From NCBI GenBank assembly GCA_016209685.1, contig JACQVQ010000013.1, positions 102,341 to 166,340 of the forward strand: DNA of 64,000 nucleotides, written 5' to 3'. The DNA comes from Planctomycetota bacterium (GTDB lineage: Bacteria; Planctomycetota; Brocadiia; Brocadiales; Bathyanammoxibiaceae). The translations under genes were made by a program, and so were the position numbers. The notes under the pieces are model-generated. The model did no database searches. It had not been told where the DNA came from and saw nothing but the letters and a program-made list of their open reading frames with translations. Shown here piece after piece: positions 4,491 through 63,695 of the stretch (its first letter is position 1; each line of letters starts with the position of its first letter).

Positions 4491-5251
4491 ATAAAGTCCT
4501 ATTCAGTAGAAAGTCCGCCTTAAGCGGAGTGGACAGCAGAGAGGTCTTTCCCTCCCTACGGTCTACTGCTTACTATCTACTGCTTTTTGTGGTATGGACA
4601 GTCTTTGTATCCTCTTCACCCCTTAATGCCCAGTCCACCTCTGGCGGAAGGGACCTGGAGTCTGTACTGGACGAGATAGAGAGGGCTAACCAGAGCTTTG
4701 CAAGCATGGAGGCAGAGGTTATCTACACCAGGAGTATCTTCCTACTGGAAGAAGAAGAGGTTTCCAATGGAAAGGTATACTACCAGAAACCCAAGAAGCT
4801 CCGCATGGAATTTAAACCCCCCAGGGACGAGGTGAACGTTGCTGATGGGGAATGCCTCTGGGTCTATCATCCCCAGGTCAAGCAGGTAGAAAAGTACCGC
4901 CTGGCCAAGGGAGAGACCAAGGAACTGGACTTCTTCCAGTTCGGATACGAGGGTTCCGTAAGAAAGGCCAAAGAAAATTACGTTATAGAGCTGGTCTCTG
5001 GAAGTGGTGGAGACATGCCCTATGTCCTCAAACTCACCCCAAAGGGTATGGAGCCTCCCCCGCAGTATATGGAGATAAGACTATGGGTGGAGGAAGGGCT
5101 GTGGCTCCCAATCAGGATGGAACTATACGAGAGTGGGGGAGAGGTGATAAACCGCATTGAATTACGAGATATAAAGCTAAACCGGCCCCTCAAGGAGTCA
5201 CTCTTTCAGTTCACCCTCCCGGAAGGGGTGGAAGTGGTAGAGCCTCTTTAG
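4487..5251 (+). CDS. LolA-like outer-membrane lipoprotein carrier/sorting family protein
   Basis: 254-aa ORF overlapping upstream stop by 4 nt; signal-peptide-like YYLLLFVVWTVFVSSSPLNA; general LolA-like look (by eye). First ~30 codons are made of dispersed repeats, start uncertain. Confidence 0.5.
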   Translation: MNKVLFSRKSALSGVDSREVFPSLRSTAYYLLLFVVWTVFVSSSPLNAQSTSGGRDLESVLDEIERANQSFASMEAEVIYTRSIFLLEEEEVSNGKVYYQKPKKLRMEFKPPRDEVNVADGECLWVYHPQVKQVEKYRLAKGETKELDFFQFGYEGSVRKAKENYVIELVSGSGGDMPYVLKLTPKGMEPPPQYMEIRLWVEEGLWLPIRMELYESGGEVINRIELRDIKLNRPLKESLFQFTLPEGVEVVEPL

Positions 5252-5390
5252 AGATGCAGGATGCCCTGGGAAAGGGCTTGTAATCTCCTGCATATGAAAA
5301 TATAATTTTTGTAGACCGCTTCGGGCGGATGAACGTTCTTTTCCTAGTCAAAGCTATATACTCCATACCTTTGAGAAGGGAGCAAGAGAG

Positions 5391-5804
5391 ATGGACAAGA
5401 AAAAGGTCATAGAAATCCTCAACAAGGCCCTCACTGAAGAACTCGGCGCCCTTATTCAATACATGCAGCATCATTATCTTTATGAAGGGGCCAATTTCGT
5501 CTGTGTGAGCGAACTTATGAAGGAGTTCAGCATGACGGAGATGGACCATGCCTATAAACTGGGCGAGAGGATAGCAATGCTGGATGGGATTCCCACCACC
5601 AAACCAGGAGAGATAAAGGTCCCCAAGAAGAGCATAGATATGCTCAAGGCAAACCTGCAGGACGAACTGGCGGCCATTGAGAACTACAGGAAGTGGATTC
5701 AAGAAGTGGCAACCCTGGGAGACCCTGTGTCCCGTCTCATGCTTGAAAAGATTCTCGGGGATGAGGAAGAACATGCCCATGAGCTGGAGATGCTGCTAGC
5801 CTAG
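5391..5804 (+). CDS. bacterioferritin-like ferritin-fold di-iron protein
   Basis: 137-aa ORF; ExxH pairs (TEMDHAYK, DEEEHAHE) spaced as in a ferritin four-helix bundle. Confidence 0.75.
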   Translation: MDKKKVIEILNKALTEELGALIQYMQHHYLYEGANFVCVSELMKEFSMTEMDHAYKLGERIAMLDGIPTTKPGEIKVPKKSIDMLKANLQDELAAIENYRKWIQEVATLGDPVSRLMLEKILGDEEEHAHELEMLLA

Positions 5805-7947: not shown

Positions 7948-8313
7948 ATGCCAGAGACCCGTTTCGTAGTCCATGAACACCACGCCCGACACCTCCACTG
8001 GGACCTGCGTCTGGAGATGGATGGGGTGCTGAAGAGCTGGGCCGTACCCAAAGGCCCACCCACCGCGCCTGGCGTAAGACGCCTGGCCGTCCAGACCGAA
8101 GACCACCCACTTGACTATATTGACTTTGAGGGCGTAATCCCTGAAGGGCACTACGGGGCCGGTACGGTGAAGGTATGGGACACAGGCCCCTTTGAACTAC
8201 TGGGACAAGACAACATGGAGCTAAAATTCCACTTGCAAGGCAGGAGACTTAGAGGTACTTATTATCTGTTGCATTTTAAGGAAAAAAACTGGCTGTTCTT
8301 TAAGGGGAAGTAA
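7948..8313 (+). CDS. stand-alone LigD-type 3'-phosphoesterase (PE) domain protein
   Basis: 121-aa ORF; FVVHEHHARHLHWDLRLE...SWAVPKGP...EDHPLDYIDFEGVIPEGHYGAG matches the LigD PE-domain signature. Confidence 0.85.
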   Translation: MPETRFVVHEHHARHLHWDLRLEMDGVLKSWAVPKGPPTAPGVRRLAVQTEDHPLDYIDFEGVIPEGHYGAGTVKVWDTGPFELLGQDNMELKFHLQGRRLRGTYYLLHFKEKNWLFFKGK

Positions 8314-8852: not shown

Positions 8853-8876
8853 GGGCGTATTGCAATACGCCCCTAC
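8849..8876. repeat. REP-like perfect palindrome GTAGGGGCGTATTGCAATACGCCCCTAC
   Basis: 28-nt palindrome between convergent genes; TAG 8850-8852 stops the + gene and CTA 8873-8875 is the uvrA stop on the - strand. Confidence 0.9.
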
Positions 8877-11776
8877 AAGGGCAAATGTTCCTTCAAGGCC
8901 CCCCCCGTATGAGACCTCTCACACCTGGCCACTGCTTCCGGCGTACCTGCCACTACCACCTCTCCCCCTTCCTCTCCGCCCTCTGGTCCAAGGTCTATGA
9001 CGTAGTCCGCCTGTTTGATGACGTCCAGGTGGTGTTCAATGATTATCACCGTATTGCCCATGTCCACTAGACGGTTGAGGATCTTCAGGAGGTTGTGTAT
9101 ATCTGCAAAGTGTAGACCCACGGTAGGCTCGTCCAGGATGTAGAGGGTCTTGCCCGTAGGGGTCTTGGCCAGTTCGGTAGAGAGCTTCACCCTCTGGGCC
9201 TCTCCCCCTGAGAGGGTGGTGCTGGGCTGGCCCAGGGTTATGTAGCCCAGACCCACCTCCTTTAGTGTCCTTAAGGTCCTCTCTAACCTGGGGATGTTCC
9301 TGAAAAGCTCATGGGCCTCCTCTATCCTCATGGACAGTGCCTCTGCCACGTCCTTTTCTCTATAGGTTATCTCCAGGGTCTCCCTGTTGTATCGCTTCCC
9401 CTTGCATTGGTCACAGGTGACGTAGGTATCGGGCAAGAAGTGCATCTCCAGTCGTTTTATGCCCTGTCCCTCACAACCCTCACAGCGTCCCCCCTTGACG
9501 TTAAAGCTGAAACGCCCTGGGCCATACCCCCTTACCCTGGCCTCCCTGGTCTGGGCGAAGGCCTGCCTTATATGAGTAAAGGCCCCCGTGTAGGTGGCGG
9601 GGTTAGACCTGGGTGTACGGCCAATGGGGGACTGGTCTATCTCTATCACCTTATCTATCTTCTCACTACCCAGGATGCGCTCACAGGCCCCTGGCTTTAC
9701 GTTGCTCCGGTAGATGGCCCTGGCCAGATACCTGTGCAAGGTCTGGTCTACCAGGGTACTCTTGCCTGAACCAGAGACGCCCGTCACGCAGCAGAAGACC
9801 CCCAGGGGTATCTTGACGTCCATTGACTTTAGGTTATTCTCTCTGGCCCCTTTTATCTCTATGCAATTCTTCCAGTCTACCTTCCGCCTCCTGGGAGGTA
9901 TCTCTATCTTTAGACTCCCCTTGAGATAGCTGGCAGTGAGGGAACTATCCCTTTTGAGTATCTCCTCTAAAGACCCTTGAGATACTACCCGCCCCCCTCT
10001 ATCACCGGCCCCGGGCCCGAGGTCCACTATATGGTCTGCGCTGCGGATAGTCTCCTCGTCATGCTCCACTACCAGTATGGTGTTCCCCAAGTCGCGCAGG
10101 GCCTTCAGGGTGGAAATGAGGCGATGCCCGTCCCTGGAGTGGAGGCCGATGGTAGGCTCGTCCAGGACGTAGCAGACCCCCACCAGGCCACTACCTACCT
10201 GAGAGGCCAGCCTTAGACGCTGGGCCTCTCCCCCTGAGAGGGTAGTACTTATCCTGTCCAGGGTAAGGTAGCCAAGCCCCAGTTCTATCATGAACCTCAA
10301 TCGCCCCGTAATCTCCTTTAGAATCTCCCTGGCGATGCGCCCCTTTTCCGCGCCAGAAAAGAGGGTCTGGAATCCATCTAAAGTAGCGAGGGCACGGAGG
10401 GCATCCAGCCCCACGACCTGTCCAATATTCTTACCTCCTATCTCTACTGCAAGAGCCTCGGGCCTGAGTCTGGTCCCCTTACAGCCCTCGCACGTCTGCA
10501 CACACATGTAGGACTCCAGTCTCCTTTTCACGGCCTCCCGTTCCGTCCTGGAATGCAGGTCCTTGAGGAGGGGCAGTGCCCCCTCAAAACCCCTACCGCC
10601 ATGGAGGAGGGTCTCCCTGGTCTCCCTGGACAATTTCCTGAAGGGGGTATCCATCTCCGTGGGGAAGGAATCCCTCAGTAACCTTTCGTAGTAACCATCC
10701 ATCTTACTGCCCCAATCTCTAAGGGCATGGATTGCCCCTTGCCTGAGGCTTAGGGATTTTTCAGGGACTATCAGGTCCGTGTCAAACTCCAGCCTGTAGC
10801 CCAACCCCTCGCAACTCGGGCATGCGCCGTAGGGGCTGTTAAAGGAGAAGAGTCTGGGCGCTGGTTCTTCAAGACCCGTACCGCACTGCCTGCAGGCGTA
10901 GCGTTGGCTGTAAAGGGTGTCCTGCCATGCGGAATGCGGAGTGCGGAGTGCGTTCCGAGTGCGGAATGGGGAGTGCGGATTGCGGAATTTAATTCCGCAT
11001 TCTGCATTCCGCACTCCGCATTCCTGAGAGACTATCATTATCCCCTCTCCCACCTCCAGGCAGGTCTGGATGGAGTTATAGAGCCTGGGCCAGTCGGGTG
11101 TGGCCCTGACGCCCTCTTTCATCACGAGCCTATCCACCATTACCTCTATGTTATGGGTCTTGTAACGGCTGAGTTTTATGGGCTGGGTAATATCCACCAG
11201 GAGGCCATCCACCCTGGCCCTGACGAAGCCCTCCTTCCTCACGGCCTCAAAAACCTCCTTGTGTTCCCCCTTCTTCCCCTTTATTACCGGGGCCAGGAGC
11301 ATCAGCCTGGTACCGGGGGCTATCTGCATCACCCTTTCCACTATCTCGTCCGCACTCTGTCGAGCAACTTCCTGACCGCATTGCGGGCAGTGGGGCGTAC
11401 CCAGTTTGGCAAAGAGCAGTCTGAGGTAGTCGTATGTCTCCGTGACCGTGGCCACGGTGGAGCGAGGGCTGGCAGAAGCGGTGCGCTGTTCAATGGCTAT
11501 GGTTGGGGGGACACCTTCAATGTGGTCTACGTCGGGTTTCTGCATCTGCTCCAGGAACTGGCGGGCATAGGAGGACAGACTTTCTATGTAACGCCTCTGC
11601 CCCTCGGCAAAGATGGTGTCAAAGGCCAGGGAGGACTTCCCGGAGCCGCTCACCCCCGTCACCACCACCAACGCATCCCTGGGGATGTCAATGTCAATAT
11701 TCTTGAGGTTATGCACCCTCGCACCCCTGATAGATATGTATTGGTCTCTTTCTTCCATGATTAAAACCCATATCAT
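8873..11776 (-). CDS. uvrA: excinuclease ABC subunit A (UvrA), carrying an in-frame palindromic insert
   Basis: 967-aa ORF; two ABC modules (GVSGSGKSS x2, LSGGEAQR x2), Zn-module cysteines (CPQCG, CRQCG...CPSCEGLG). ATG at 11758 (MEERDQ...) is an alternative start. Confidence 0.95.
10928..11033. repeat. 106-bp 'CGGAAT/GCGGAGT' word palindrome inside uvrA
   Basis: TGCGGAATGCGGAGTGCGGAGTGCG...GCGGATTGCGGAATTTAATTCCGCATTCTGCATTCCGCACTCCGCATTCC, centre near 10993; read in-frame as [33 protein letters not shown]. Confidence 0.85.
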
Positions 11777-12964: not shown

Positions 12965-14587
12965 CTACCTGACTGCCCCCTCTACCGCCTCGGCCTCTTC
13001 TTCCTCCTCCTTTAGCTCCGTGACCATTGTCTCGGTGGTCAGGAGGAGTCCGGCTACACTGGCGGCGCTTTGTAGGGCAACCCTGGTTACCTTGGTTGGA
13101 TCAACGATACCGGCCTTTATCATGTCTACATACTGAAGGGTATTGGCATCAAAACCTACGTTGGTGGCCTTTCCCTTTACGTCTTCTACCACCACGGCAC
13201 CATTCTCGCCGGTGTTGGTGGCAATCTGTCTCATGGGGGACTCCAGGGCTTTTATTATAATGTCCAGCCCAAGCTTCTCGTCACCTCTGAATTTCTTCCT
13301 GGCCTCTTGCAGGACAGGGATTGTCCTGATATAGGCCACGCCGCCCCCAGGGATGATGCCCTCTTCTACGGCGGCCCTGGTGGCATGGAGGGCGTCTTCT
13401 ACCCTGGCCTTCTTTTCGTTCATCTCTGCCTCTGTGGCCGCTCCTACCTTTATCACTGCCACGCCCCCCGTGAGTTTTGCCAGTCGCTCCTGGAGTTTCT
13501 CCTTGTCGTAGTCAGAGGTGGAGGCCTCCACCTGGTTCCTAATCTGGGTGATACGGGCCTGGATATCGGTCTTTTTGCCTTCTCCGCCCACCACGGTAGT
13601 CTTATCCTTATCTACGGTAACCTTCTTGGCATGGCCCAGGTCTGGGATGTCCAGGGTCTCTAGTTTCACCCCCAGGTCTTCCGTGACGGCCCTGCCATTA
13701 ATTAGGATAGCTATGTCTTCCAGCATGGCCTTCCTGCGGTCGCCGAAACCCGGGGCCTTGACCGCACAGCACTGGAGTACGCCACGGAGTTTATTCACTA
13801 CCATGGCGGCCAGGGCCTCTCCCTCCACGTCGTCTGCAATGATGAGAAGGGGCTTGCCGCTGGTGGAAATCTTCTCCAGCAATGGGATTAGTTCCTTCAG
13901 GGCCGAAATCTTTTTCTCGTGGATGAGGACGTAAGGGTCTTCAAATTCCACCAGCATCTTTTGAGGGTTAGTAACAAAATAGGGGGAGATGTATCCCTTA
14001 TCAAACTGCATCCCTTCTACCACGTCCAGTCGGGTCTCCACTCCCCTGGCATCCTCTACGGTGATAACACCGTCTTTGCCCACCTTTTCCATGGCATCGG
14101 CCAGGAGGGTGCCAATAAAAGAGTCATTATTGGCAGATATAGTGCCCACCTGGGCAATCTCGGCCCGTCCCTTCACGGGTTTGGAGAGTTTTTGTATCTC
14201 TTCTACTACTAATTCTACGGCCCGGTCTATGCCCCTCTTGAGGGCGATGGGGTTGGCGCCTGCCGTAATGGACTTGATCCCCTCTTTAAAAATGGCCTCG
14301 GCCAGGATGGTGGCAGTGGTAGTACCATCTCCTGCGGCATCACTGGTCTTAGAGGCCACCTCGTTTACCAGCTTGGCCCCCATGTTCTCAAAAGGGTCCT
14401 TAAGCTCCACCTCTTTGGCCACTGTGACACCGTCTTTAGTCACAGATGGGGAACCAAAGCCCTTTTCCAGGATGACGTTCCGGCCCGTCGGGCCCATGGT
14501 GACCCGGACGACGTCGGCTAGCTGTTTTATCCCCTGAAGGAGCTTTTTCCTGGCCTCTATATCGTAAAGCAATTGTTTGGCTGCCAC
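12965..14587 (-). CDS. groEL: chaperonin GroEL (copy downstream of groES)
   Basis: ORF track extends to 14617; SD GGGAGG + GTG at 14587 gives VAAKQLLYD..., 540 aa; GDGTTTAT motif; acidic tail ...[15 protein letters not shown] instead of a GGM repeat. Confidence 0.93.
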
Positions 14588-14607
14588 AGTATTCCTCCCT
14601 ATTCGTT

Positions 14608-14661
14608 GGGCGGACACGCAGGTCTACCCTACAATGGGCAGACACATAGGTCTGCCCCTAC
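14608..14661. repeat. tandem REP-like hairpins between groES and groEL
   Basis: GGGCGGACACGCAGGTCTACCCTAC + GGGCAGACACATAGGTCTGCCCCTAC; the terminal CTA (14658-14660) is the groES stop codon on the - strand. Confidence 0.8.
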
Positions 14662-15062: not shown

Positions 15063-16691
15063 TTACATCATGGGTGGCCTGGGTCCGCCTGGGGCTAATT
15101 TTTCTTCTTTCTTCGGTATCTCGCTTATCACGCAATCCACCGTAAGGAGGGTACCGGCTATGCTCACGGCGTTCTGGAGGGCACAGCGGGCCACCTTCGT
15201 GGGGTCTATCACCCCGGTCTCCAGCATGTTGCAGAATTCTTGCCTCTCTGCGTCAAAACCGTAGGCCTGGTCTTTGGACTCCAGTATCCTCTTTACCACT
15301 ACAGAGCCTTCCATCCCGCTATTCTCAGCAATCTGGGCGGCGGGTACCGTGAGGGCCCTTCTTATGATGTCCACCCCTACTGCCTCATCCCCTTTAAGGC
15401 CAAGACCGTTTTCAAGTATGGCGGCCGTCCTGAGCAAGGCCACCCCGCCTCCTGGTAAGATGCCCTCTTCTATGGCCGCCCTGGTGGCGTGTAAGGCGTC
15501 CTCCATGAGGGCCTTTTTGGCCTTCATCTCCGTCTCCGTAGCGGCACCTACGTTTATCTGGGCCACCCCGCCGGCCAGCTTGGCCAATCTCTCCTGGAAT
15601 TTCTCCTTATCGTAGTCACTCGTGGTGGCCTCCATCTCGGTACGTATCTGTTTTATCCGCCCGACCACTGCATCATGGGAACCAGCCCCCTGGATTATCG
15701 TGGTATGCTCCGAGTCTACGGTCACCTTCTTGGCCCGGCCTAACTGGTTCAACTCCACCTCCTCCAGTTGCACGCCCAGGTCTTTGAAGAGGGCCTCTCC
15801 TCCGGTAAGGATAGCAATGTCCTCTAGCATGGCCTTCCTCCTGTCGCCGTAGCCGGGGGCCTTGACGGCACAGCAGGATATGGTCCCTTTGAGCTTATTC
15901 ACCACCAGGGTCGCAAGGGCCTCACCCTCCACGTCCTCAGATATGAGGAGGAGGGGCCTGCCGCTCCTGGCAATCTTCTCAAGTAAGGGTACTAAATTCT
16001 TTATGCCTGACAGTTTGTCCTCATAGACAAGTATGTAGGGGTTGTCCAGTTCTACCCGCATATCTTCGGCATTGGTTACAAAGTGGGGGGAGAGGTATCC
16101 TCTATCAAACTGCATCCCCTCCACCACCTCCACCTCCGTTACGGGGCGGCGGCCTTCTTCTACGGTAATAACCCCGTCTTTGCCCACCTTCTCCATGGCA
16201 TCAGCAATCATCTTTCCTATCTCAGGGTCATTGTTAGCAGAGATGGTGCCAACGCTGGCAATCTCCTGCTGGTCCTTTATCTTCTTACTCATCTCTTTAA
16301 GTCTTTCCACCACCTTCTCTACGGCCTTACGCATCCCACGGTTCAGGGCCATAGCGTCAGCCCCGGCGGCAATGTTCTTCAGCCCCTCCTTGAAGATAGC
16401 CTCGGCAAGGACTGTGGCGGTCGTGGTACCGTCCCCAGCTACATCACTAGTCTTAGAAGCCACCTCCCTAACCAGACGTGCGCCCATATTCTCATAGGGG
16501 TCCTTCAGTTCTATCTCTTCGGCTACGGTAACACCGTCCTTGGTTACTGTGGGGCTGCCGTAACCCTTATCCAGGATGGCATGTCTACCCCTGGGACCCA
16601 GGGTGCTCTTCACGGCACGTGCTAACTTGGCTACTCCCCTTAGTAATGCCTCTCTTGCTTCTTCCTTGAAGGCTAGCTGTTTGGCTGCCAT
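15063..16691 (-). CDS. groEL: chaperonin GroEL (copy upstream of groES)
   Basis: 542-aa [16 protein letters not shown]...; GDGTTTAT motif; tail ...[10 protein letters not shown]. Confidence 0.95.
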
Positions 16692-17102: not shown

Positions 17103-17130
17103 TTGACAGAAGGGCTGGTTTTGCTATAAT
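17103..17130 (+). promoter_or_regulatory. candidate sigma70 promoter for the PPIase gene
   Basis: TTGACA (17103-17108), 16-nt spacer, TATAAT (17125-17130), about 50 nt before ATG 17183. Confidence 0.55.
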
Positions 17131-23167: not shown

Positions 23168-23203
23168 TTCTGCAACTGTTCCAGAAATGCCTCTACACGG
23201 GTG
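23168..23203 (-). pseudogene. remnant B of the 3' end of the dehydratase-like gene
   Basis: 36 nt match 23733-23768 at 34/36 (encodes VEAFLEQLQN in the host-gene frame); overlaps the stop of the NTase gene. Confidence 0.65.
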
Positions 23204-23579
23204 GCAAGAGACTCCAAGACGGGCTGGAATAAACCCAGACGACTTCACGCCTAATCCTTTCGTAAGATTGTCCCTGCCGTGCAAGGCCCTGCCATTCCTC
23301 CTCTGTGTAGACCAGTACGTCTGCCGGGACAGGTAACTCGGTTATATCCCATTCCGAGGCCCGCCGCATGAAGGGGTGTTGTGAGTCCTTAACAATTATG
23401 ATTAGGTCAAGGTCGCTTCCTACGCCCCAGTCCCCCCGGGCATAGGAGCCAAAATAACCGATACTTAGTACATCTTTTCGGGTCTTCACGGCCTTGTCAA
23501 CCCACTGGCCCACTGCCCGTTTGACCGTCTGTGCATCAGGCCATCTGAGAACGGACGAACTCAATAATCTCACGGGCAT
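23193..23579 (-). CDS. MNT-type nucleotidyltransferase-domain protein (orphan, no HEPN partner seen)
   Basis: 128-aa ORF; GYFGSYARGDWGVGSDLDLIIIV is the GS-x10-DxD pol-beta NTase motif. Confidence 0.75.
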   Translation of the reverse strand: MPVRLLSSSVLRWPDAQTVKRAVGQWVDKAVKTRKDVLSIGYFGSYARGDWGVGSDLDLIIIVKDSQHPFMRRASEWDITELPVPADVLVYTEEEWQGLARQGQSYERIRREVVWVYSSPSWSLLPPV

Positions 23580-30240: not shown

Positions 30241-30558
30241 TTAGACATAGATTAGATTCTGCTCAATATCTTCAGCGATGTGCTCATACCTTGGGTTTTT
30301 GTAACTACTCTTTAAACAATCAAAAGTTGCCACATCTACCTTTACTTTATTTAGTACCTCCTCCAGATAGTATGCAAGGTCTACAAAATCGAGCCCTAAA
30401 GGTTTTTTGAGTTCTACGAGGATGTCTACATCGCTTCCCTTTCGTTGCAAGCCTTTTGCGAAAGAATCAAAAATGGCAATCTTTTCTACCCCGTATCTTT
30501 CTCTTAAATACGGAAGCTCTCTTCTTAGGATATCAACAATTTTCTCTTTTGTAAGCAT
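30241..30558 (-). CDS. MNT-type nucleotidyltransferase (orphan, no HEPN partner seen)
   Basis: 105-aa ORF starting 11 nt after the leuS stop, with SD AAGGA..GAGG; FDSFAKGLQRKGSDVDILV is the NTase GS...DxD motif. Confidence 0.8.
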   Translation of the reverse strand: MLTKEKIVDILRRELPYLRERYGVEKIAIFDSFAKGLQRKGSDVDILVELKKPLGLDFVDLAYYLEEVLNKVKVDVATFDCLKSSYKNPRYEHIAEDIEQNLIYV

Positions 30559-40889: not shown

Positions 40890-42008
40890 TTACAGCAGTA
40901 CCAAATTGTCCCTATGCACCACCTCATCATAGGGCTTGGTGCCCAGGAGTTTGGCAATCTGGGAGCTGGGTTGACCCTTAATCTTCTCCAACTCCTCTGA
41001 GGAATAGTTTGATAGGCCCTTAGCAAATTCTTCTTTATAACAGAAGAGGGATATTACGTCGCCCCTCTCAAAATCCCCCTCTACATGTGTAATACCGGAG
41101 GCCAGCAGACTCTTGCCCCTCCGTGCGAGGGCCTCAGAGGCACCGTGGTCCACATAGATACGTCCCCTGGGGCGCAGGGTGAAGCCTATCCATCGCTTGC
41201 GGCTCTGGAGCCTATGTGTGGCGGGGAGGAAGAGGGTGCCCAGGGGTTCACCTTGCATAATCTTTACGAGGACGTTGGGCGTCCTGCCATTGACCACGAT
41301 TACTGCCTCACCAGAGGCCGTGGCCACCCTGGCGGCCTGGAGTTTACTCTGCATACCCCCCGTCCCCAGATAGGTCTTGCTCTTAAAGGCAAGGTGTTCT
41401 ATCTCCTCGGTAATCTCTTCCACTACGGGGATTACTTCTTTACCGGCAGGGTCTTTGTATAGTCCGTCTACGGAGGATAGCATTACCAGTAATTCCGCCC
41501 TCAGGAGGTTGGTGACCAGGGCGGCAAGGGTGTCGTTATCGGTAAAAGCAATCTCTTCTACTGATACGGTATCATTTTCATTGATGACAGGTATGGCCTT
41601 CATCCTCAGTAGCGTTGCGATGGTATTGGAGGTGTTGAGGTAGCGGTGGCGGTCTTCCAGGTCTTCCCTGGTGAGGAGTATCTGGGCGGCGTGGTAACCA
41701 TGCGTCTTAAAGGAGTCGTCATAGGCCCGTATGAGTTTACTCTGACCTACGGCGGCGGCGGCCTGGAGTTCTGGCAGGGTGGTGGGCCTTTTCTTCATGC
41801 CAAACTCTCCCATACCTGCCCCAATGGCCCCTGAGCTTACTACGGTCACCTCGTAACCCATGTTTCTTAGTCCCACAAGCTGTGTGGAGAGATTGACTAC
41901 TTGTGGTACGTCCAGGAACCCCTCCCTGGTAGTAATCACCCCGGTGCCTACCTTCACTACCAGTCGCTTTGTCCTTGAAATAATCGCCCTTCTCTGGCCT
42001 TCTTGCAT
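40890..42008 (-). CDS. proB: glutamate 5-kinase with PUA domain
   Basis: 372-aa ORF; KRLVVKVGTGVIT... amino-acid-kinase fold followed by a PUA-like C-terminal region. Confidence 0.9.
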   Translation of the reverse strand: MQEGQRRAIISRTKRLVVKVGTGVITTREGFLDVPQVVNLSTQLVGLRNMGYEVTVVSSGAIGAGMGEFGMKKRPTTLPELQAAAAVGQSKLIRAYDDSFKTHGYHAAQILLTREDLEDRHRYLNTSNTIATLLRMKAIPVINENDTVSVEEIAFTDNDTLAALVTNLLRAELLVMLSSVDGLYKDPAGKEVIPVVEEITEEIEHLAFKSKTYLGTGGMQSKLQAARVATASGEAVIVVNGRTPNVLVKIMQGEPLGTLFLPATHRLQSRKRWIGFTLRPRGRIYVDHGASEALARRGKSLLASGITHVEGDFERGDVISLFCYKEEFAKGLSNYSSEELEKIKGQPSSQIAKLLGTKPYDEVVHRDNLVLL

Positions 42009-42053: not shown

Positions 42054-42081
42054 TTGACATTTACTACCCTTATGCTATCAT
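42054..42081 (+). promoter_or_regulatory. candidate sigma70 promoter of the histone-fold gene
   Basis: TTGACA (42054-42059), 16-nt spacer, TATCAT (42076-42081). AT-rich leader, SD AAAGGAGA 6 nt before ATG 42144. Confidence 0.5.
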
Positions 42082-42143
42082 TTCCACCACCCTTTATCCT
42101 TATATCCTTTTATATTCTTATATCATAAAAAAAGGAGACATCA

Positions 42144-42335
42144 ATGGCTGCAAAGAAGGGACAAGAAATCCTGGTAGTAGCTAGTAAAGTACGTGAGTAT
42201 ATCAAATCAAAGGGCTGTCTTACCTCCGGAGAGTTGGTTCCGGCGTTGAGCAGCAAACTGCGCTGTTGTGTAGACGGTGCTATAGCTAGGGCAAAGGCCA
42301 ACAGCAGAAAGACCGTGAGCGCCAAGGACGTGTAG
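42144..42335 (+). CDS. bacterial histone-fold protein (HMf/HBb-like singlet, truncated after L2)
   Basis: 63 aa. ILVVASKVREYIKSKG-CLTSGEL-VPALSSKLRCCVDGAIARAKANS-RKTVSAKDV aligns by eye to archaeal HMfB (PIAPIGRIIKDAG...ARHAGRKTIKAEDI) and, from memory, to Bdellovibrio HBb. Confidence 0.65.
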   Translation: MAAKKGQEILVVASKVREYIKSKGCLTSGELVPALSSKLRCCVDGAIARAKANSRKTVSAKDV

Positions 42336-42388
42336 CCTACTGCTATATATTTATATATTATACGTCCAGAATAACTGAAATGGGGGTA

Positions 42389-43828
42389 CTAACTAGCTTC
42401 CAGCTTCTGTTTTAATAGTTCATTGACCATCTGAGGGTTGGCCTTACCTTTGGTCTTGCGCATTATCTGACCCACCAGGAAGGTGAAGGCAGTCTTTTTA
42501 CCTTTTTTATAGTCGGTCAATGCGTTAGGGTTTTCGGTCAGTATCGCCTGGATAATGCCTTCTAGCTCGGCACTGTCGCTTATCTGAAGGAGGCCCCTCT
42601 CTTGTACCAGTTGAGGGGCCTTCTTTTTTGTATCTACCATCTCTACAAAGACCCCTCTGGCCACAGGTATACTCACTGCACCGGTTTCCACAAGCTTTAT
42701 CAATTCCACCAGCATCTCAGGGCCTACTGGGAAGTCCTTTATTTCAAGCCGCCTCTCCTTGAGTTCCCTCAAGACATCGTTGGTTACCCAGTTACAAACT
42801 ACCTTGGGAGATTCGTAGTGCGACACGCACCTCTCAAAGTAGTCTGCTACGGCCTTATCCTCGGTAAGCACCCCGGCATCGTAGTCAGAGAGGCCCAGCT
42901 CCGTCACAAAGCGGTTTCTCCTGGCCAGTGGTAGCTCGGGGAGGGTGGCACTCAACTCCTCCAACCACTGGTCTTTTATCACCACGGGGGCCAAATCAGG
43001 CTCAGGGAAGTAGCGGTAGTCATGGGCCTCCTCCTTGGTGCGCATCCTTTCGGTCCTCTCACGGAGTTCGTCCCAGAGCCTCGTCTCCATGGCTACCACC
43101 CCCCCACCCTCCAGGGATTCCCTCTGCCGTCCCGTCTCATACTCCAGGGCCTTTAGTACCGCCTTCATGGAGTTGAGGTTTTTTATCTCTACCCGGTTGC
43201 CTAGCTTCTCTTGCCCTGTGGGTCTCAGGGAGATGCTGGCCTCAAACCTCAGCGAGCCCTCCTGCATCTTGCAGTCTGAGACCTCCGTGTAGAGGAGTAC
43301 GTTCCTTAAGGTGTTCATGTATGCCTCTGTCTCCTCCAGACTCCTCATGTCAGGGTAGGTGACTATCTCCAATAGAGGCACCCCTGCCCGGTTGAAGTCT
43401 ACCAGGCTATAGTCTGCCCCAGGTTCTTCGGGGTGGAGGAGCTTGCCGGCCTCTTCCTCTAAGTGGACGTTGTGGATGCGTATCCTTCTTTTCTGGTCGT
43501 CGTACTTTATCTCAAGGTAGCCATCTACTCCCAGGTTCAGGTAGTTCTGGGATATCTGGTAGTTTTTGGGCAGGTCGGGGTAGTAATAATTCTTTCTATC
43601 AAAGGTGGTGAATTGGTTTACTCTGCAATGCAGGGCAAGGGTTGCCTTAAGGGCCATCTCAAAGCCCTTTTTGTTCATAACGGGTAGTACCCCAGGGAGC
43701 CCCAGGCAGACCGGACATACCAGGGTATTGGGTGGTGCACCAAATCTGTTGAGACACCCGCAGAAGAGTTTTGTCTCCGTCAGGAGTTCTGCGTGGGTCT
43801 CAAGTCCTACGACTGTCTCATATTGCAT
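42389..43828 (-). CDS. gatB: Asp/Glu-tRNA(Asn/Gln) amidotransferase subunit B
   Basis: 479-aa ORF MQYETVVGLETHAELLTETKLFCGC...; typical GatB N-terminus and YqeY-like tail. Confidence 0.95.
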   Translation of the reverse strand: MQYETVVGLETHAELLTETKLFCGCLNRFGAPPNTLVCPVCLGLPGVLPVMNKKGFEMALKATLALHCRVNQFTTFDRKNYYYPDLPKNYQISQNYLNLGVDGYLEIKYDDQKRRIRIHNVHLEEEAGKLLHPEEPGADYSLVDFNRAGVPLLEIVTYPDMRSLEETEAYMNTLRNVLLYTEVSDCKMQEGSLRFEASISLRPTGQEKLGNRVEIKNLNSMKAVLKALEYETGRQRESLEGGGVVAMETRLWDELRERTERMRTKEEAHDYRYFPEPDLAPVVIKDQWLEELSATLPELPLARRNRFVTELGLSDYDAGVLTEDKAVADYFERCVSHYESPKVVCNWVTNDVLRELKERRLEIKDFPVGPEMLVELIKLVETGAVSIPVARGVFVEMVDTKKKAPQLVQERGLLQISDSAELEGIIQAILTENPNALTDYKKGKKTAFTFLVGQIMRKTKGKANPQMVNELLKQKLEAS

Positions 43829-51628: not shown

Positions 51629-54445
51629 TTAATGTCTTGTATTCTGGACTATGGTTCCTCCATTCAGATATCCCTTCAGGTATCCCCCGGTGTAGGAGTC
51701 TTTCAGGTTTGCAATCTCCTCTGGCGTGCCGGCGCCTACAATGTGTCCCCCTTTCTCGCCTCCCTCGGGTCCAAGGTCTATAATATAATCTGCACACTTT
51801 ATTACCTCAAGGTTGTGCTCTACGACCAGGAGGGAATGCCTTTCCCGCAGGAGGCACTGGAAGCAATCCAGGAGCTTTCTAATGTCCTCAAAGTGGAGTC
51901 CCGTGGTGGGTTCGTCAAAGAGGAAGAGTATGTCTTCCTGGTATCTCTTTGCAAGGAAGCTGGCCAATTTGAGTCGCTGGGCCTCGCCTCCTGAGAGGGT
52001 GGTGGCAGGCTGGCCCAGGCGGAGGTAGCCGAGGCCCACATCGTGCAGGCATTTCAGGTCTTCCACCAGCGAGGGTACGTCCTCAAAGAACTTCAGGGAC
52101 TCCTCCACGGTCATTTCCATCACCTCATGTATGTTTTTGTGCCTGTATCTGATGTCCAGTATATCCCTCCTGAAGCGTTTGCCATGGCACTTCTCGCAGG
52201 TTACGTAGACGTCTGCCAGGAATTGCATCTCTACCTTCCTGTAACCCTCTCCCTGGCAGTAATCGCACCGCCCACCAGCTACGTTAAACGAGAAGGCGCC
52301 AGGGCCGAAGTTTCTTACCCTGGCCTCCCTGGTGGAGGCAAAAAGCCTCCTTATCTCATCAAACGCCTTGATGTAAGTTATGGGGTTAGACCTGGGAGTA
52401 CGTCCAATGGGAGATTGGTCCACCATTACTGCGTCCCAGATGTTTTTTTCCCCCAGTAGCTGGGAGTACTGGCCTGCGGGGCCCCGGAAACCATACCCCA
52501 ACTTCTTCTTTAGGGCAGGGTAAAGGGTGTCTTGTATCAGGGTGCTCTTGCCCGACCCCGATACCCCTGTTACGCAGACCAGCATGTTCAGGGGAAAATA
52601 CACGTCTATGTTCTTCAGATTATTCCGACAGGCCCCTTTGAGGACTATGGCCTTTCCGGTAGGCTTACGCCTCTCGCTGGGGACGGTTATGGACCTCCTG
52701 CCCAGTAGGTATTCTCCCGTCAGGGAACCATTCCTCTCAGGGAGGTCCTGTAAGGTGCCCTGGTACACCACCTGCCCTCCCCTCTCCCCTGCACCAGGCC
52801 CCAGGTCTATGAGGAGGTCTGCCGAGCGGATGATGTCCATGTCGTGTTCCACCACTACCACCGTGTTGCCCAGGTCTCTAAGCCGCTTGAGTGTGGTGAT
52901 AAGCCGCTCCGTATCCCTGGGATGGAGTCCTATGCTTGGTTCGTCCAGTATGTAAAGTACGTTCACCAGGGAAGACCCCAGAGAGGTGGTAAGGTTTACC
53001 CTCTGTGCCTCACCCCCTGAGAGGGTGCGGGTGAGACGGTCCAGGCTCAGGTAGCCCAGCCCGATACGTACCATGTATTCAAGCCTCTTCCGTATCTCCT
53101 GCAGGATGAGCCTTGCTACCCCTTCCTCGTAGTCTTTGAGTCTTAGTCCTTCAAAGAACCCGTAGGCCTCTCCTATGCCCATGGCACAGACGTCGGCCAT
53201 GGTCTTGTCGGCTATTTTTACGTTCAATGCCTGGGGGTTAAGCCTGTAGCCCTTACACCCTGCACAGGTGGCGTACCCCCTGTACTTACTCAGGAAGACC
53301 CTGACGTGCATCTTGTATTTCTTCTGTTCCAGCCACTGGAAGAACTCCTCAATGCCACAGAAGTCCGGCGTACCTTCCCAGATGAGTCTCACGTGCTCTC
53401 TGGAGAGCTTCTGGTAGGGAACGTCCGTAGGGATACCGCACCGCCTGGCCCCTTTCAGGAGTTCCTCCTGGAGGTGGCCGTAGGCAGGGGTAGTCCAGGG
53501 CTGTATCACCCCCTGACAGAGACTCTTTCCTGGGTCAGGGATTACCAGGTTCTTGTCTATCTCAATGGTGTTGCCGAAGCCTTGGCACCTGGGGCAGGCC
53601 CCTAGCGGGCTATTAAAAGAGAAGAGGTTGGGGGAGGGCTCCGGGTATTCCAGGTTGCAGTCCTCGCACCGGAAGCGGTTACTGGACTTCAACTCCCTAT
53701 TCTCGTCAGGCAGTAGGATACTCAACCGCCCCTGTCCCAGACGGAAGGCCGTCTCCAGTGCATCTACCAGACGCTCCCTTATATCTGCCCTCACCGTCAG
53801 CCTGTCCACCACCCCCTGGACTGGTCCCGAAAGGAGGTCAAATCCCGGCTCCTCTGTAATATCTACTACCCTGCCGGGATGCTCATCGGTGCTACCGACC
53901 CAGAGCCTGAGAAGCCCCTGTTCTTTTAGTAGGGCAATCTGCTTCTGACTGCTTAGCTTAGTGCTTATTTGTAGAGGGAAGAGTACCAGGAACCTTGTCC
54001 CCTCCGGCAGGGACAGCACCTTTCCCACCACCTGGGTCACGGAGTCACTCTCCACCTGGCGTCCGCATCCCTGGCAGTAAGTACGCCCTACCTTGGCAAA
54101 GAGCAGTCTGAGGTAATCGTTTATCTCCGTAGCAGTACCTACGGTACTCCTGCGGCTCTTTACTGGATTCCGTTGCTGGATGGCAATGGCGGGGGGGATA
54201 CCCTCAATGTGGTCAACCTCGGGTTTATCCATCCTCTCCAGGAACTGGCGGGCGTAGGTGGAGAAGGTCTCTACGTAGCGCCGCTGGCCCTCGGCATAGA
54301 GGGTATCAAACACCAGACTGCTCTTGCCGGAACCTGAGACCCCTGAGACTACCACCAGTTTCTTCAGGGGAATCTCTATGTCTATGTTCTTTAGGTTGTG
54401 TACCCTTATGCCACGGGCGAGGATGGAGTTTTTGGGTTTGGGCAT
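51629..54445 (-). CDS. second UvrA-family ATPase (full-length paralogue)
   Basis: 938-aa ORF; GVSGSGKSS x2, LSGGEAQR x2, Zn-module cysteines. Diverges from the first copy in the region ...EEFFQWLEQKKYKMHVRVFLSKYRGY.... Confidence 0.9.
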   Translation of the reverse strand: MPKPKNSILARGIRVHNLKNIDIEIPLKKLVVVSGVSGSGKSSLVFDTLYAEGQRRYVETFSTYARQFLERMDKPEVDHIEGIPPAIAIQQRNPVKSRRSTVGTATEINDYLRLLFAKVGRTYCQGCGRQVESDSVTQVVGKVLSLPEGTRFLVLFPLQISTKLSSQKQIALLKEQGLLRLWVGSTDEHPGRVVDITEEPGFDLLSGPVQGVVDRLTVRADIRERLVDALETAFRLGQGRLSILLPDENRELKSSNRFRCEDCNLEYPEPSPNLFSFNSPLGACPRCQGFGNTIEIDKNLVIPDPGKSLCQGVIQPWTTPAYGHLQEELLKGARRCGIPTDVPYQKLSREHVRLIWEGTPDFCGIEEFFQWLEQKKYKMHVRVFLSKYRGYATCAGCKGYRLNPQALNVKIADKTMADVCAMGIGEAYGFFEGLRLKDYEEGVARLILQEIRKRLEYMVRIGLGYLSLDRLTRTLSGGEAQRVNLTTSLGSSLVNVLYILDEPSIGLHPRDTERLITTLKRLRDLGNTVVVVEHDMDIIRSADLLIDLGPGAGERGGQVVYQGTLQDLPERNGSLTGEYLLGRRSITVPSERRKPTGKAIVLKGACRNNLKNIDVYFPLNMLVCVTGVSGSGKSTLIQDTLYPALKKKLGYGFRGPAGQYSQLLGEKNIWDAVMVDQSPIGRTPRSNPITYIKAFDEIRRLFASTREARVRNFGPGAFSFNVAGGRCDYCQGEGYRKVEMQFLADVYVTCEKCHGKRFRRDILDIRYRHKNIHEVMEMTVEESLKFFEDVPSLVEDLKCLHDVGLGYLRLGQPATTLSGGEAQRLKLASFLAKRYQEDILFLFDEPTTGLHFEDIRKLLDCFQCLLRERHSLLVVEHNLEVIKCADYIIDLGPEGGEKGGHIVGAGTPEEIANLKDSYTGGYLKGYLNGGTIVQNTRH

Positions 54446-57510: not shown

Positions 57511-57587
57511 TATTTAAGTTCCTCCCATAAACCATTTTTTATAGCATATTTATACCATTATGTCAAACCTTGTTCTTTTGGAGGTTT

Positions 57588-62232: not shown

Positions 62233-63288
62233 ATGCACAGTTTAGCCAATTATAAGAAGATAATAGACGCCTTCCCCCGTATGAAGATAGGGGTAGTGGC
62301 TGACCTTGTGGCCGATATTTATGTCTACGGGCGGCCCTTCAGGCTATCCAGGGAGGCCCCTGTGATTGTGGTGAGATACGAGGGGGAGGAGACGGTCCCC
62401 GGTGGAGGGGCCAATACGGTCAACAATATTGCAAGGCTTGGGGCCAAGGTCTTTCCCGTGGGGGTGGTGGGGGAGGACGGACCTGGCCGACAGTTAAAAG
62501 GATATTTTGAGAAGGAGGGGGTGGAAACGGGGGGCATATTCAGCTCCAGGGAACGGGCCACTGTCAGTAAGACCCGGCTCCTGGCAGGGGACCTCCATGC
62601 CTCCAGACGACAGGTGGTGAGGATAGATAGGGAGATTACCTCTACCGTTCGTCCTGCCCTGGAGGATAAGATACTGGGATATATGGAGGAGGTAAACAGG
62701 GCGGTAAATGCCTGGGTAGTCTCTGACTACGGGTATGACATAGTAACCCCCAGGGTGCTGGAGAAGGTGAAGTCCTTTGCCAGGGAGAAGCCGGTGGTGG
62801 TGGATTCCAGATACAGGATACTGGATTTTGCAGGCGTTACCATCCTTGCCCCCAACGAGCAGGAGGCAGAGGCGGCCTCCCTTGAAATGCGGAATTCGGA
62901 ATGCGGAGTTCGGAATTCCGCACTCCGCGATCCGCATTCCGAATTTGAAGGGGGTCTCCTGAAGATAGGTAAGACCCTCATGGATAGGCTAAACCCGGAG
63001 GCCCTCCTTATCACGAGGGGCAACCGGGGGATGATGCTATTTGAGAAGTCCGGTGGGGTAGAGGATATTCCAATTAGCGGCCCAAACGAGGTGACGGACG
63101 TAACGGGGGCTGGCGATACAGTAACTGCCCTCCTGGGGCTGGCCATCCCAACTGGCGCCAACTTTTCCCAGGCGGCAAGGCTCTCCAATTACGCCGCAGG
63201 GGTAGTAGTGATGAAGAACGGTACTGCCACCCTGACCAGGGAGGAACTTATCGCGGCAATACAAAAAGAAATGCCAAAATCCAAATGA
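62233..63288 (+). CDS. hldA: D-glycero-beta-D-manno-heptose-7-phosphate kinase (RfaE domain I type), with in-frame palindromic insert
   Basis: 351-aa ORF; PfkB-family pattern incl. DVTGAGDT; followed (after an inserted gene) by the RfaE domain II homologue. Confidence 0.85.
   Translation: MHSLANYKKIIDAFPRMKIGVVADLVADIYVYGRPFRLSREAPVIVVRYEGEETVPGGGANTVNNIARLGAKVFPVGVVGEDGPGRQLKGYFEKEGVETGGIFSSRERATVSKTRLLAGDLHASRRQVVRIDREITSTVRPALEDKILGYMEEVNRAVNAWVVSDYGYDIVTPRVLEKVKSFAREKPVVVDSRYRILDFAGVTILAPNEQEAEAASLEMRNSECGVRNSALRDPHSEFEGGLLKIGKTLMDRLNPEALLITRGNRGMMLFEKSGGVEDIPISGPNEVTDVTGAGDTVTALLGLAIPTGANFSQAARLSNYAAGVVVMKNGTATLTREELIAAIQKEMPKSK
62888..62946. repeat. 59-bp 'CGGAAT/GCGGAGT' word palindrome inside hldA
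   Basis: TGCGGAATTCGGAATGCGGAGTTCGGAATTCCGCACTCCGCGATCCGCATTCCGAATTT; read in-frame as MRNSECGVRNSALRDPHSEF. Same word family as the uvrA insert. Confidence 0.85.
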
Positions 63289-63695
63289 CAAATGAAATCC
63301 AAAGACCAAATGCCAAAGTATATGATTTGGAAGAGAGAACCGCTAGGTTTGGTGAAGAGGTTATTGAGTTTGTAAAAGGTCTTGAAAGGGACGAAATTAA
63401 TCGTCCCCTAATCAGCCAGGTGGTGAGGTCTGCCGCAAGTATTGGCGCAAACTACATGGAGGCAGACGGGGCGGAATCAAAGAAGGACTTTAAACATAAG
63501 ATTTCAACTTGTAAGAAGGAAGCAAAAGAAACAAGGCATTGGATAAGAATGGTTGCCAAGGCAAATCCACACAAAAAAGAAGCATGTCGGAAATTATGGC
63601 AAGAAGCCCAGGAACTAACATTAATTTTTTCCTCAATCCTCTTGTCACAGAAAAGCAAGGAAGAATCCAAATGTCAAAATCCAAATTCCAAATGA
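63285..63695 (+). CDS. four-helix-bundle protein (23S rRNA intervening-sequence protein / Avd-like family)
   Basis: 136-aa ORF; ...YDLEERTARFGEEVIEFVK...SQVVRSAASIGANYMEA....SKKDFKHKISTCKKEAKETRHWIRM... matches the S23p/TIGR02436-type pattern. Confidence 0.8.
   Translation: MTNEIQRPNAKVYDLEERTARFGEEVIEFVKGLERDEINRPLISQVVRSAASIGANYMEADGAESKKDFKHKISTCKKEAKETRHWIRMVAKANPHKKEACRKLWQEAQELTLIFSSILLSQKSKEESKCQNPNSK

Follow-up and report, generated by a model that had tools for sequence, protein, structure and literature searches.

An alpha3-truncated histone gene, assigned by sequence criteria to the face-to-face type, in the proB-gatB interval of a Brocadiia planctomycete

The 64-kb stretch of planctomycete contig JACQVQ010000013.1 (assembly GCA_016209685.1, positions 102,341 to 166,340 of the forward strand), referred to below as the window, harbours a real 63-codon gene encoding a histone-fold protein, which is a member of the alpha3-truncated histones. 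The open reading frame (ORF; 42144..42335, + strand) starts with ATG, and its product, MAAKKGQEILVVASKVREYIKSKGCLTSGELVPALSSKLRCCVDGAIARAKANSRKTVSAKDV, is basic (pI 9.9, 13 K+R versus 5 D+E). The chain begins with an N-terminal basic tail (residues 1-8), followed by alpha1 (13-22), loop L1 (23-30), alpha2 (31-52) and, finally, L2 together with a vestigial alpha3 (53-63); the key residues are R49, N53, R55, K56, T57 and D62. The motif RKTVSAKDV occupies residues 55-63, and the stop codon comes right after V63, one residue past D62. The gene is preceded by the divergent proB (40890..42008, − strand; glutamate 5-kinase with Pfam AA_kinase and PUA domains) and followed by the convergent gatB (42389..43828, − strand; Pfam GatB_N and GatB_Yqey), hence it would be transcribed alone. 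A first-pass annotation, made from the letters of the sequence without database searches, had described a stand-alone gene in an AT-rich pocket, in agreement with this arrangement and with the GC content of the flanking gaps (0.34 upstream and 0.32 downstream, compared to 0.525 for the window).

The identical protein was called by gene callers on 11 public contigs, with the same neighbours throughout. It is annotated as a "hypothetical protein" of Candidatus Tripitaka californicus (P0191 in our set), with the NCBI lineage Planctomycetota; Ca. Brocadiia; Ca. Hypogeohydatales. The closest species-level genome match is RIFCSPHIGHO2_12_FULL_52_36, in which the flanking proteins are 91-97% identical; this genome was placed by Zhao et al. 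(PMC9723696) in Ca. Bathyanammoxibiaceae, a deep family of anaerobic ammonium-oxidizing (anammox) bacteria.

Upstream of the histone gene lies a sigma-70-type promoter (42054..42081, + strand) composed of a −35 hexamer TTGACA (42054-42059), a 16-nt spacer and an extended −10 element TGcTATCAT (42073-42081), the −10 hexamer itself being TATCAT (42076-42081). It matches 11 of the 12 consensus positions and in addition carries the TG of the extended −10 element, so that the near-consensus promoter TTGACA-16-TATCAT reported in the first-pass annotation is indeed present. The promoter is strong, though not unique within the window, where seven sites score at least 11/12 against 0.47 expected under a dinucleotide Markov model. 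These sites begin at 17103, 42054, 47215 and 62071 on the + strand and at 57566, 50574 and 6212 on the − strand, and three of the seven are perfect TTGACA-16-TATAAT. Near-consensus promoters with a 16-nt spacer thus appear to be used unusually often in this lineage.

The predicted 5' untranslated region (42082..42143, + strand; ∼55-60 nt from the inferred transcription start) is AT-rich and unstructured: the RNA fold of 42088-42160 did not exceed that of shuffled controls in stability (z = +0.13), and an Rfam scan of the histone gene region gave no match. The leader carries the Shine-Dalgarno sequence AAAGGAGA (42131-42138, + strand), a site of this kind having also been proposed from the letters alone; its GGAG core ends 6 nt ahead of the ATG. 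Between 42095 and 42125 it contains short direct repeats of the TTATAT type (CCTTATATCCTTTTATATTCTTATATCAT).

Eight orthologous loci (L001-L008) were compared with the window, originating from metagenome-assembled genomes (MAGs) of Ca. Brocadiales, a Planctomycetota MAG (L005, whose protein is assigned by NCBI to Hypogeohydataceae) and two Scalindua species. The adjacency of histone (+) and gatB (−) is kept in 8/8 loci, and proB (−) is found upstream in 7/8 (L002-L008), L001 starting so near the histone gene that the upstream neighbour cannot be seen. The gene order still holds in the most distant loci, although their ProB and GatB share only 58-63% identity with those of the window. The pattern TTGAC[A/T]-16-TGnTAT[C/T]AT precedes the histone gene in all nine loci, those of Scalindua included, and most orthologs have AAGGAG(G/A) 5-8 nt upstream of the ATG (GGGAGG in L007); the remaining upstream spacer is not alignable between distant members. 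Since the promoter and the Shine-Dalgarno sequence are kept at such divergence, we infer that expression would be strong and constitutive, as befits a putatively abundant nucleoid protein.

The coding sequence itself is under purifying selection, with a ratio of nonsynonymous to synonymous substitution rates (dN/dS) of 0.19-0.20 relative to the closest orthologs and 0.09 relative to the more distant L005, beyond which synonymous sites are saturated. These values bear on the possibility that the ORF is spurious and that the real feature is either an antisense ORF of 71 aa (42110..42325, − strand) or merely a non-coding AT-rich spacer. In most orthologs the antisense frame continues without a stop for 61-65 aa, but it is broken in L008, where the run is reduced to 42 aa. 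Moreover, dN/dS of the sense frame is well below 1, the promoter and Shine-Dalgarno sequence face the sense ORF in all loci, and it is the sense frame that has homologs with E-values down to 1e-27 (search of 5.8 billion proteins) as well as matches among solved structures. The antisense ORF was consequently rejected and a spurious histone ORF is hardly conceivable, the idea being effectively refuted.

Two further elements of the transcript were noticed in the comparison of these loci. The 5' untranslated region of the window is 8 nt longer than those of L001-L003, which looks like the insertion of a repeat unit. At the 3' end, a hairpin (GGACGUGUAG ... UAUACGUCC; 42326..42367, + strand) spans the stop codon, with no U tract after it. 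Its folding energy (−23.3 kcal/mol for a 101-nt region) did not differ significantly from controls (z = −1.3), and among L001-L008 the stem sequences are kept only in the close relatives L001-L003. The search for an intrinsic terminator after the histone gene returned this hairpin without a U tract and a weak scan match overlapping the end of gatB. The hairpin may be a stabiliser of the mRNA 3' end or a weak terminator.

The histone fold was supported by both sequence and structure searches. A phmmer search against PDB sequences gave HLp of Leptospira perolatii (9QT0) as the best match (E 2.6e-12), followed by HBb/Bd0055 of Bdellovibrio (8CMP, 8FVX; E 1.7e-7) and HTkC of Thermococcus kodakarensis (9F2C; E 3.4e-5). 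The AlphaFold2 model, built as a single chain from a 37-sequence alignment, has a mean predicted local distance difference test score of 83.9 and contains helices at residues 13-22 and 31-52 (22 residues), while DSSP finds no third helix. The best Foldseek match of this model in the PDB was again HLp, with template modelling (TM) scores of 0.83 and 0.93 (the latter HLp-normalised), an rmsd (root-mean-square deviation) of 1.0 Å and 48% identity. The top nine matches were all HLp, HBb or HTkC (query-normalised TM 0.79-0.85, rmsd 0.8-1.2 Å), and nucleosomal histones ranked behind them (HMfB, TM 0.69). The histone fold proposed in the first-pass annotation was thereby corroborated; the same annotation had named the lack of any histone-fold match in structure or profile searches as the outcome that would speak against it, and the searches came out the opposite way. 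Its by-eye alignment to HMfB across alpha1-L1-alpha2-L2 was reproduced with hhalign, which aligned residues 18-63 with HMfB 10-60 (E 6.5e-5), leaving a 4-residue gap in alpha2 and stopping at HMfB D59-I60, ahead of alpha3. The chain does end directly after RKTVSAKDV without a full alpha3, as can be seen from the stop codon after V63 and the model alike.

According to Schwab et al. (PMC11390915), alpha3-truncated histones have an alpha3 of 3-4 residues and an alpha2 that is 4-5 residues shorter, while RxTxxxxD is retained. All of these traits were found in the window protein, namely the fold, the loss of alpha3, an alpha2 that is 4 residues shorter than that of HMfB, and RxTxxxxD; the protein is an alpha3-truncated histone. 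The top 150 family representatives include 84 single-domain proteins; R55 and D62 occur in every one of these (84/84) and T57 is present in 80. Two other histone categories were considered and rejected. A nucleosomal archaeal histone of the HMfB type would not lack alpha3, and the Pfam scan of the protein yielded only noise (HTH_9, DUF6197), with no match to PF00808, PF00125 or PF09123, while the NCBIfam model archaea_histone (NF043032) reached 14.9 bits over residues 46-63, below its cut-off of 50. A DUF1931 pseudodimeric histone (Aq_328 type, PF09123) does not fit a single 63-aa fold without a PF09123 match; UniRef nonetheless labels the Scalindua rubra and Leptospira homologs as "DUF1931 domain-containing". 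The silence of Pfam and the sub-threshold NCBIfam match account for the label "hypothetical protein".

Single-domain alpha3 histones fall into the face-to-face (FtF) group, formally defined by a torus-shaped homotetramer, and the group of "bacterial dimers", which are HBb-like and lack R48 and N52 (PMC11390915). The hidden Markov model signature of the FtF group given in the same study, R48/N52/R54/T56/D61, is present 5/5 in the window protein as R49/N53/R55/T57/D62. Full-length HLp (P0319, 63 aa) aligns gap-free over residues 1-63 with 46% identity, so HLp numbering transfers directly. In HLp, R49, N53 and R55 are tetramer residues conserved among tetrameric bacterial FtF histones (PMC12701072); these three residues and the R55-D62 clamp are identical here, and R49 and N53 are also found in 8/8 orthologs. 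Both residues occur together in 80 of the 84 single-domain representatives, whereas HBb has S and D in their place. Two home-made profiles, both built without Brocadiia orthologs, were compared, an FtF profile (Leptospira, two other planctomycetes, the "Deltaproteobacteria" MAG clade and HTkC) and a dimer profile (HBb, B. exovorus, Kuenenia, Brocadia sinica, two Scalindua sequences and a Bdellovibrionales MAG). The window protein scored 89.1 bits with the former and 62.9 bits with the latter, and all orthologs behaved likewise. Its identity to HBb is 45%, compared to 55-67% to FtF-type clades, and the HBb-like paralogs of anammox bacteria form a set of their own. By these sequence criteria, the protein was filed as an FtF-type alpha3 histone, of the HLp/HTkC subtype rather than the HBb "bacterial dimer" one.

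Most of the residues that contact DNA in HLp are kept as well. Seven out of nine are identical (A13, S14, K15, K21, T27, G29, T57), K17 is replaced by R and T56 by K, and the sequence combines the FtF tetramer interface with the nucleosomal-type DNA-binding lysine of RKT. In the proposed mode of action, the chain adopts the modelled alpha1-L1-alpha2-L2 fold, which ends after the R55-D62 "RD clamp" with alpha3 left vestigial, and two chains would form an antiparallel histone handshake dimer, as the fold suggests. Two dimers, joined via both of their ends, would then close into a torus-shaped tetramer like those seen in crystals of HLp and HTkC, a step suggested by the conservation of R49, N53 and R55 and by the C-terminus being in HLp register. 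Such a tetramer would bind the DNA backbone without sequence specificity, as the seven shared contacts, K56 and R17 imply, using the N-terminus of alpha1 (A13-S14-K15), K21 and the L1/L2 "beta-bridge" (T27, G29, K56, T57) as predicted contacts; the lysine-rich tail MAAKKGQE probably contacts DNA too. Roughly 60 bp could be wrapped, or two duplexes bridged, compacting the chromosome. Solo transcription from a strong constitutive sigma-70 promoter, an unstructured leader and a good Shine-Dalgarno sequence would be expected to provide a high copy number. In L. interrogans, the FtF histone is an essential protein that ranks within the top 2% of expressed genes (PMC11390915), which makes an abundant architectural role plausible here as well.

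One must bear in mind, however, that prokaryotic "histones" need not all be global organisers (Schwab et al., PMC11390915). The protein could possess a histone fold and yet take no part in global genome organisation, serving instead as a local regulator of transcription or as an adaptor between proteins, comparable to the eukaryotic TAF/NF-Y-type folds and some prokaryotic histone-fold categories. No HU or IHF gene within the 64 kb accompanies the histone gene (tblastn of the window with E. coli and B. subtilis queries found none of HU, IHF, Fis and H-NS). Nevertheless, the basic tail and the HLp DNA-contact residues are conserved, there is no extra domain in the protein, the promoter is strong, conserved and constitutive-looking, and the gene sits among housekeeping genes without a partner gene. 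The characterised relatives, that is HLp, HBb and the L. interrogans histone, are all DNA-binding and abundant, and a local regulator or adaptor is therefore regarded as quite improbable.

Taken together, the product of the gene is probably a small, basic and nucleoid-associated histone that belongs to the alpha3-truncated family and to its FtF subtype, in a Brocadiia planctomycete from groundwater that is related to anammox bacteria. Several observations weigh against this assignment. The protein is recognised by neither Pfam nor NCBIfam, and near-consensus promoters are so frequent in the window that the promoter alone fails to single out the histone gene. The tetramer, the wrapping of DNA and the abundance are derived by analogy with HLp and HTkC. 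At the HLp tetramer interface, S52, T61 and F63 are replaced by A, K and V, respectively; contact positions also vary within the family, position 52 being A in 49/84 representatives and position 63 being L, V, F or I. Finally, K56, the lysine of RKT, is present here, although this lysine has been remarked upon in histones of the nucleosomal and "bacterial dimer" kinds, and its conservation in the published FtF profile is not strong (PMC11390915). K56 occurs in 42/84 of the close family representatives, thus RKTxxxD is not discriminating, and the lysine is a variant feature which does not exclude the protein from the FtF group.

The replaced interface contacts and the RKTxxxD motif would also be compatible with a "bacterial dimer" like HBb/Bd0055, that is an obligate dimer bending DNA sharply in the manner of HU/IHF or coating it edge-on, which forms no tetramers and wraps no DNA. 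The resemblance to HBb suggested in the first-pass annotation is real (44% Foldseek identity, 45-49% in our own alignments, E 1.7e-7, TM 0.84), HBb being a clear homolog, but HLp and the FtF histones turned out to be closer. Bacterial dimers have been reported in Planctomycetota (PMC11390915), and HBb-like paralogs are found in Kuenenia, Brocadia and Scalindua. On the other hand, the equivalents of R48 and N52 are both present, the dimer profile scores 26 bits below the FtF profile, and HLp leads the PDB matches with an advantage of five orders of magnitude in E-value. Furthermore, Scalindua japonica possesses both types, and the window gene is orthologous to its FtF-type copy. A dimer of the HBb kind is accordingly considered unlikely.

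If the FtF assignment is carried further, this histone might be the principal chromatin protein of deep-branching anammox-related Brocadiia (Tripitaka/Bathyanammoxibiaceae, Scalinduaceae), forming nucleosome-like tetramer particles of ∼60 bp in a compartmentalised planctomycete and joining the FtF interface with the nucleosomal-type RKT lysine in one hybrid protein, to which clade-specific cysteines in mid-alpha2 (C41/C42), together with C25, might lend redox sensitivity. This wider picture is put forward with low confidence. The protein contains three cysteines per 63 residues, C25 (window positions 42216-42218) and the adjacent C41 and C42 (42264-42269). C25 is common to the Asgard and "Deltaproteobacteria" MAG clades and C41 is found in most Brocadiia orthologs, while further cysteines occur at positions 37, 40, 42 or 45 in various members, all of them in alpha2 near the point where the alpha2 helices of the dimer cross. 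They could simply replace residues of the hydrophobic core, the host being an anaerobe, or else form a site for redox chemistry or metal binding.

Homologs from Asgard archaea (Loki, Heimdall, Hermod) are 60-67% identical to the window protein, which makes them as close as the Scalindua orthologs, HLp being 45% identical. On the basis of this similarity, a recent horizontal transfer from Asgard to Brocadiia was considered, but the grouping of Brocadiia with Asgard received a bootstrap support of only 9% and the idea was not retained. In the same neighbour-joining tree (300 bootstraps), Asgard monophyly was supported at 97% and the union of the "Deltaproteobacteria" MAG clade with Leptospira at 95%, Brocadiia monophyly reaching 33%; the alignment comprises 59 columns, a signal insufficient to resolve the Asgard relation. 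Slow evolution of a shared ancestral sequence accounts equally well for the similarity.

The family to which the window protein belongs is large. With clusters drawn at 50% identity, a profile search collected 2258 of them at E<=1e-3 and 506 at E<=1e-10; in a second search, with clusters drawn at 90% identity, their number exceeded 6000 at E<=1e-6. The statement of the first-pass annotation that bacterial histones are rare is hence overstated, all the more so as Planctomycetota had already been named as carriers (PMC11390915, PMC10627809) and are counted by both Schwab et al. (PMC11390915) and Hu et al. (PMC12701072) as one of the main groups of bacteria that carry FtF histones. Supplementary files 3 and 19 of Hocher et al. 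2023 contain HBb-like singlets of Kuenenia stuttgartiensis, Brocadia sinica, Scalindua brodae and S. japonica, as well as a second S. japonica singlet, GAX62348.1. The latter is an FtF-type ortholog of the window gene, its product showing 55% identity with the window protein and 82-83% with those of L007/L008. Anammox bacteria thus carry two predicted types of singlet histone, an HBb-like one without R49/N53 and an FtF-type one; no HBb-like second paralog was found in the 64-kb window or in the fetched loci L001-L008. The part of the supplements of Schwab et al. covered here holds no anammox names, and searching the literature with the orthologs' locus tags and accessions yielded no paper, while JGI labels several of the orthologs "histone H3/H4". 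The window gene is therefore a new, uncharacterised addition to a known histone family, of which the FtF and dimer types have already been catalogued in Planctomycetota, including anammox genera.

Not all members of the family are singlets. Among the top 150 profile matches, 66 are longer than 95 aa, mostly chains of 115-135 aa with two tandem alpha3-type folds, and these tandem-fold representatives (within P0040-P0189) score as well as the singlets and represent natural fused pseudodimers. A few of the representatives from the second search (P0256, P0275, P0299-P0304, P0311, P0318) have precomputed matches to PF09123 (DUF1931), PF00808 or PF00125.

To our knowledge, HBb and HLp are the only bacterial histones that have been studied experimentally, and their DNA-binding modes differ. 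With the present gene, a third phylum supplies a cleanly defined example of the tetrameric FtF type, the tetramer being assumed here by analogy. The position and the promoter of the gene are conserved throughout an order of bacteria that are environmentally important in the nitrogen cycle. The gene also illustrates that automated annotation still misses such histones, given the "hypothetical protein" entry at NCBI and the lack of recognition by Pfam and NCBIfam. The current picture is left unchanged, since both FtF and dimer histones of Planctomycetota, anammox genera included, are already listed in surveys. The practical value is modest: the protein is a candidate for recombinant work, owing to its RKT in an FtF scaffold, and a marker for anammox metaproteomes.

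Other genes of the window deserve a brief mention. An ORF of 137 aa (5391..5804, + strand), which overlaps a longer antisense ORF (5211..5780), encodes a ferritin-like protein (PF00210, E 1e-29) with a weak similarity to E. coli Dps (31% identity over 96 aa); it may be another DNA-protecting protein or an iron-storage one. Two UvrA-like paralogs, both with UvrA_inter, UvrA_DNA-bind and ABC_tran domains, are located at 8873..11776 (− strand, 967 aa) and 51629..54445 (− strand, 938 aa). Tandem genes of the Cpn60/GroEL family lie at 12965..14617 (− strand, 550 aa) and 15063..16691 (− strand, 542 aa), and the second of them has the best Shine-Dalgarno match of the window. Four small ORFs (23193..23579 and 30241..30558 on the − strand, 63285..63695 and 7948..8313 on the + strand) code for two proteins with a nucleotidyltransferase domain (PF01909), one homolog of the 23S rRNA intervening-sequence protein (PF05635) and one stand-alone LigD 3'-phosphoesterase (PF13298). 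PF01909 domains are typical of the antitoxins of MNT-type toxin-antitoxin systems.

Compared with known histones, the window protein shares the alpha1-L1-alpha2-L2 core and the RKT....D motif with HMfB-type histones, but it has no 10-residue alpha3 and its alpha2 is 4 residues shorter. Without a full alpha3, it would lack the four-helix-bundle interface used for hypernucleosomes. With HBb/Bd0055 of Bdellovibrio bacteriovorus (8CMP, 8FVX, 9EZZ), which is strictly dimeric (PMC12701072), it has in common the alpha3-truncated fold, a single domain of ∼60 aa, the L2 motif RKTV..(K/R)D(I/V) and the alpha1 start LVV.SKV(K/R), whereas L1 of HBb is one residue longer and HBb has a C-terminal extension. 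HTkC of Thermococcus kodakarensis (9F2C; Schwab et al. 2024) and the Asgard FtF histones carry the same subfamily signature. HTkC, however, shows 40% identity only and has E at position 53, while the Asgard proteins, which share KSKVREYIKSKGC and AIARAKAN(G/S)RKTV with the window protein, carry a 2-residue (DG) insertion at the L1/alpha2 junction. HLp of Leptospira perolatii (9QT0/9QT1/9QT2; Hu et al. 2025, PMC12701072) has the same length of 63 aa, and both proteins have a short N-terminal tail. They differ in L2, which reads RKT here and RTT in HLp, giving the window protein an extra positive charge on the DNA-facing loop, and in the cysteines C25, C41 and C42, none of which is present in HLp. 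The genomic setting is likewise distinct, the neighbours being proB and gatB here but smc and map in Leptospira, a genus of a different phylum.

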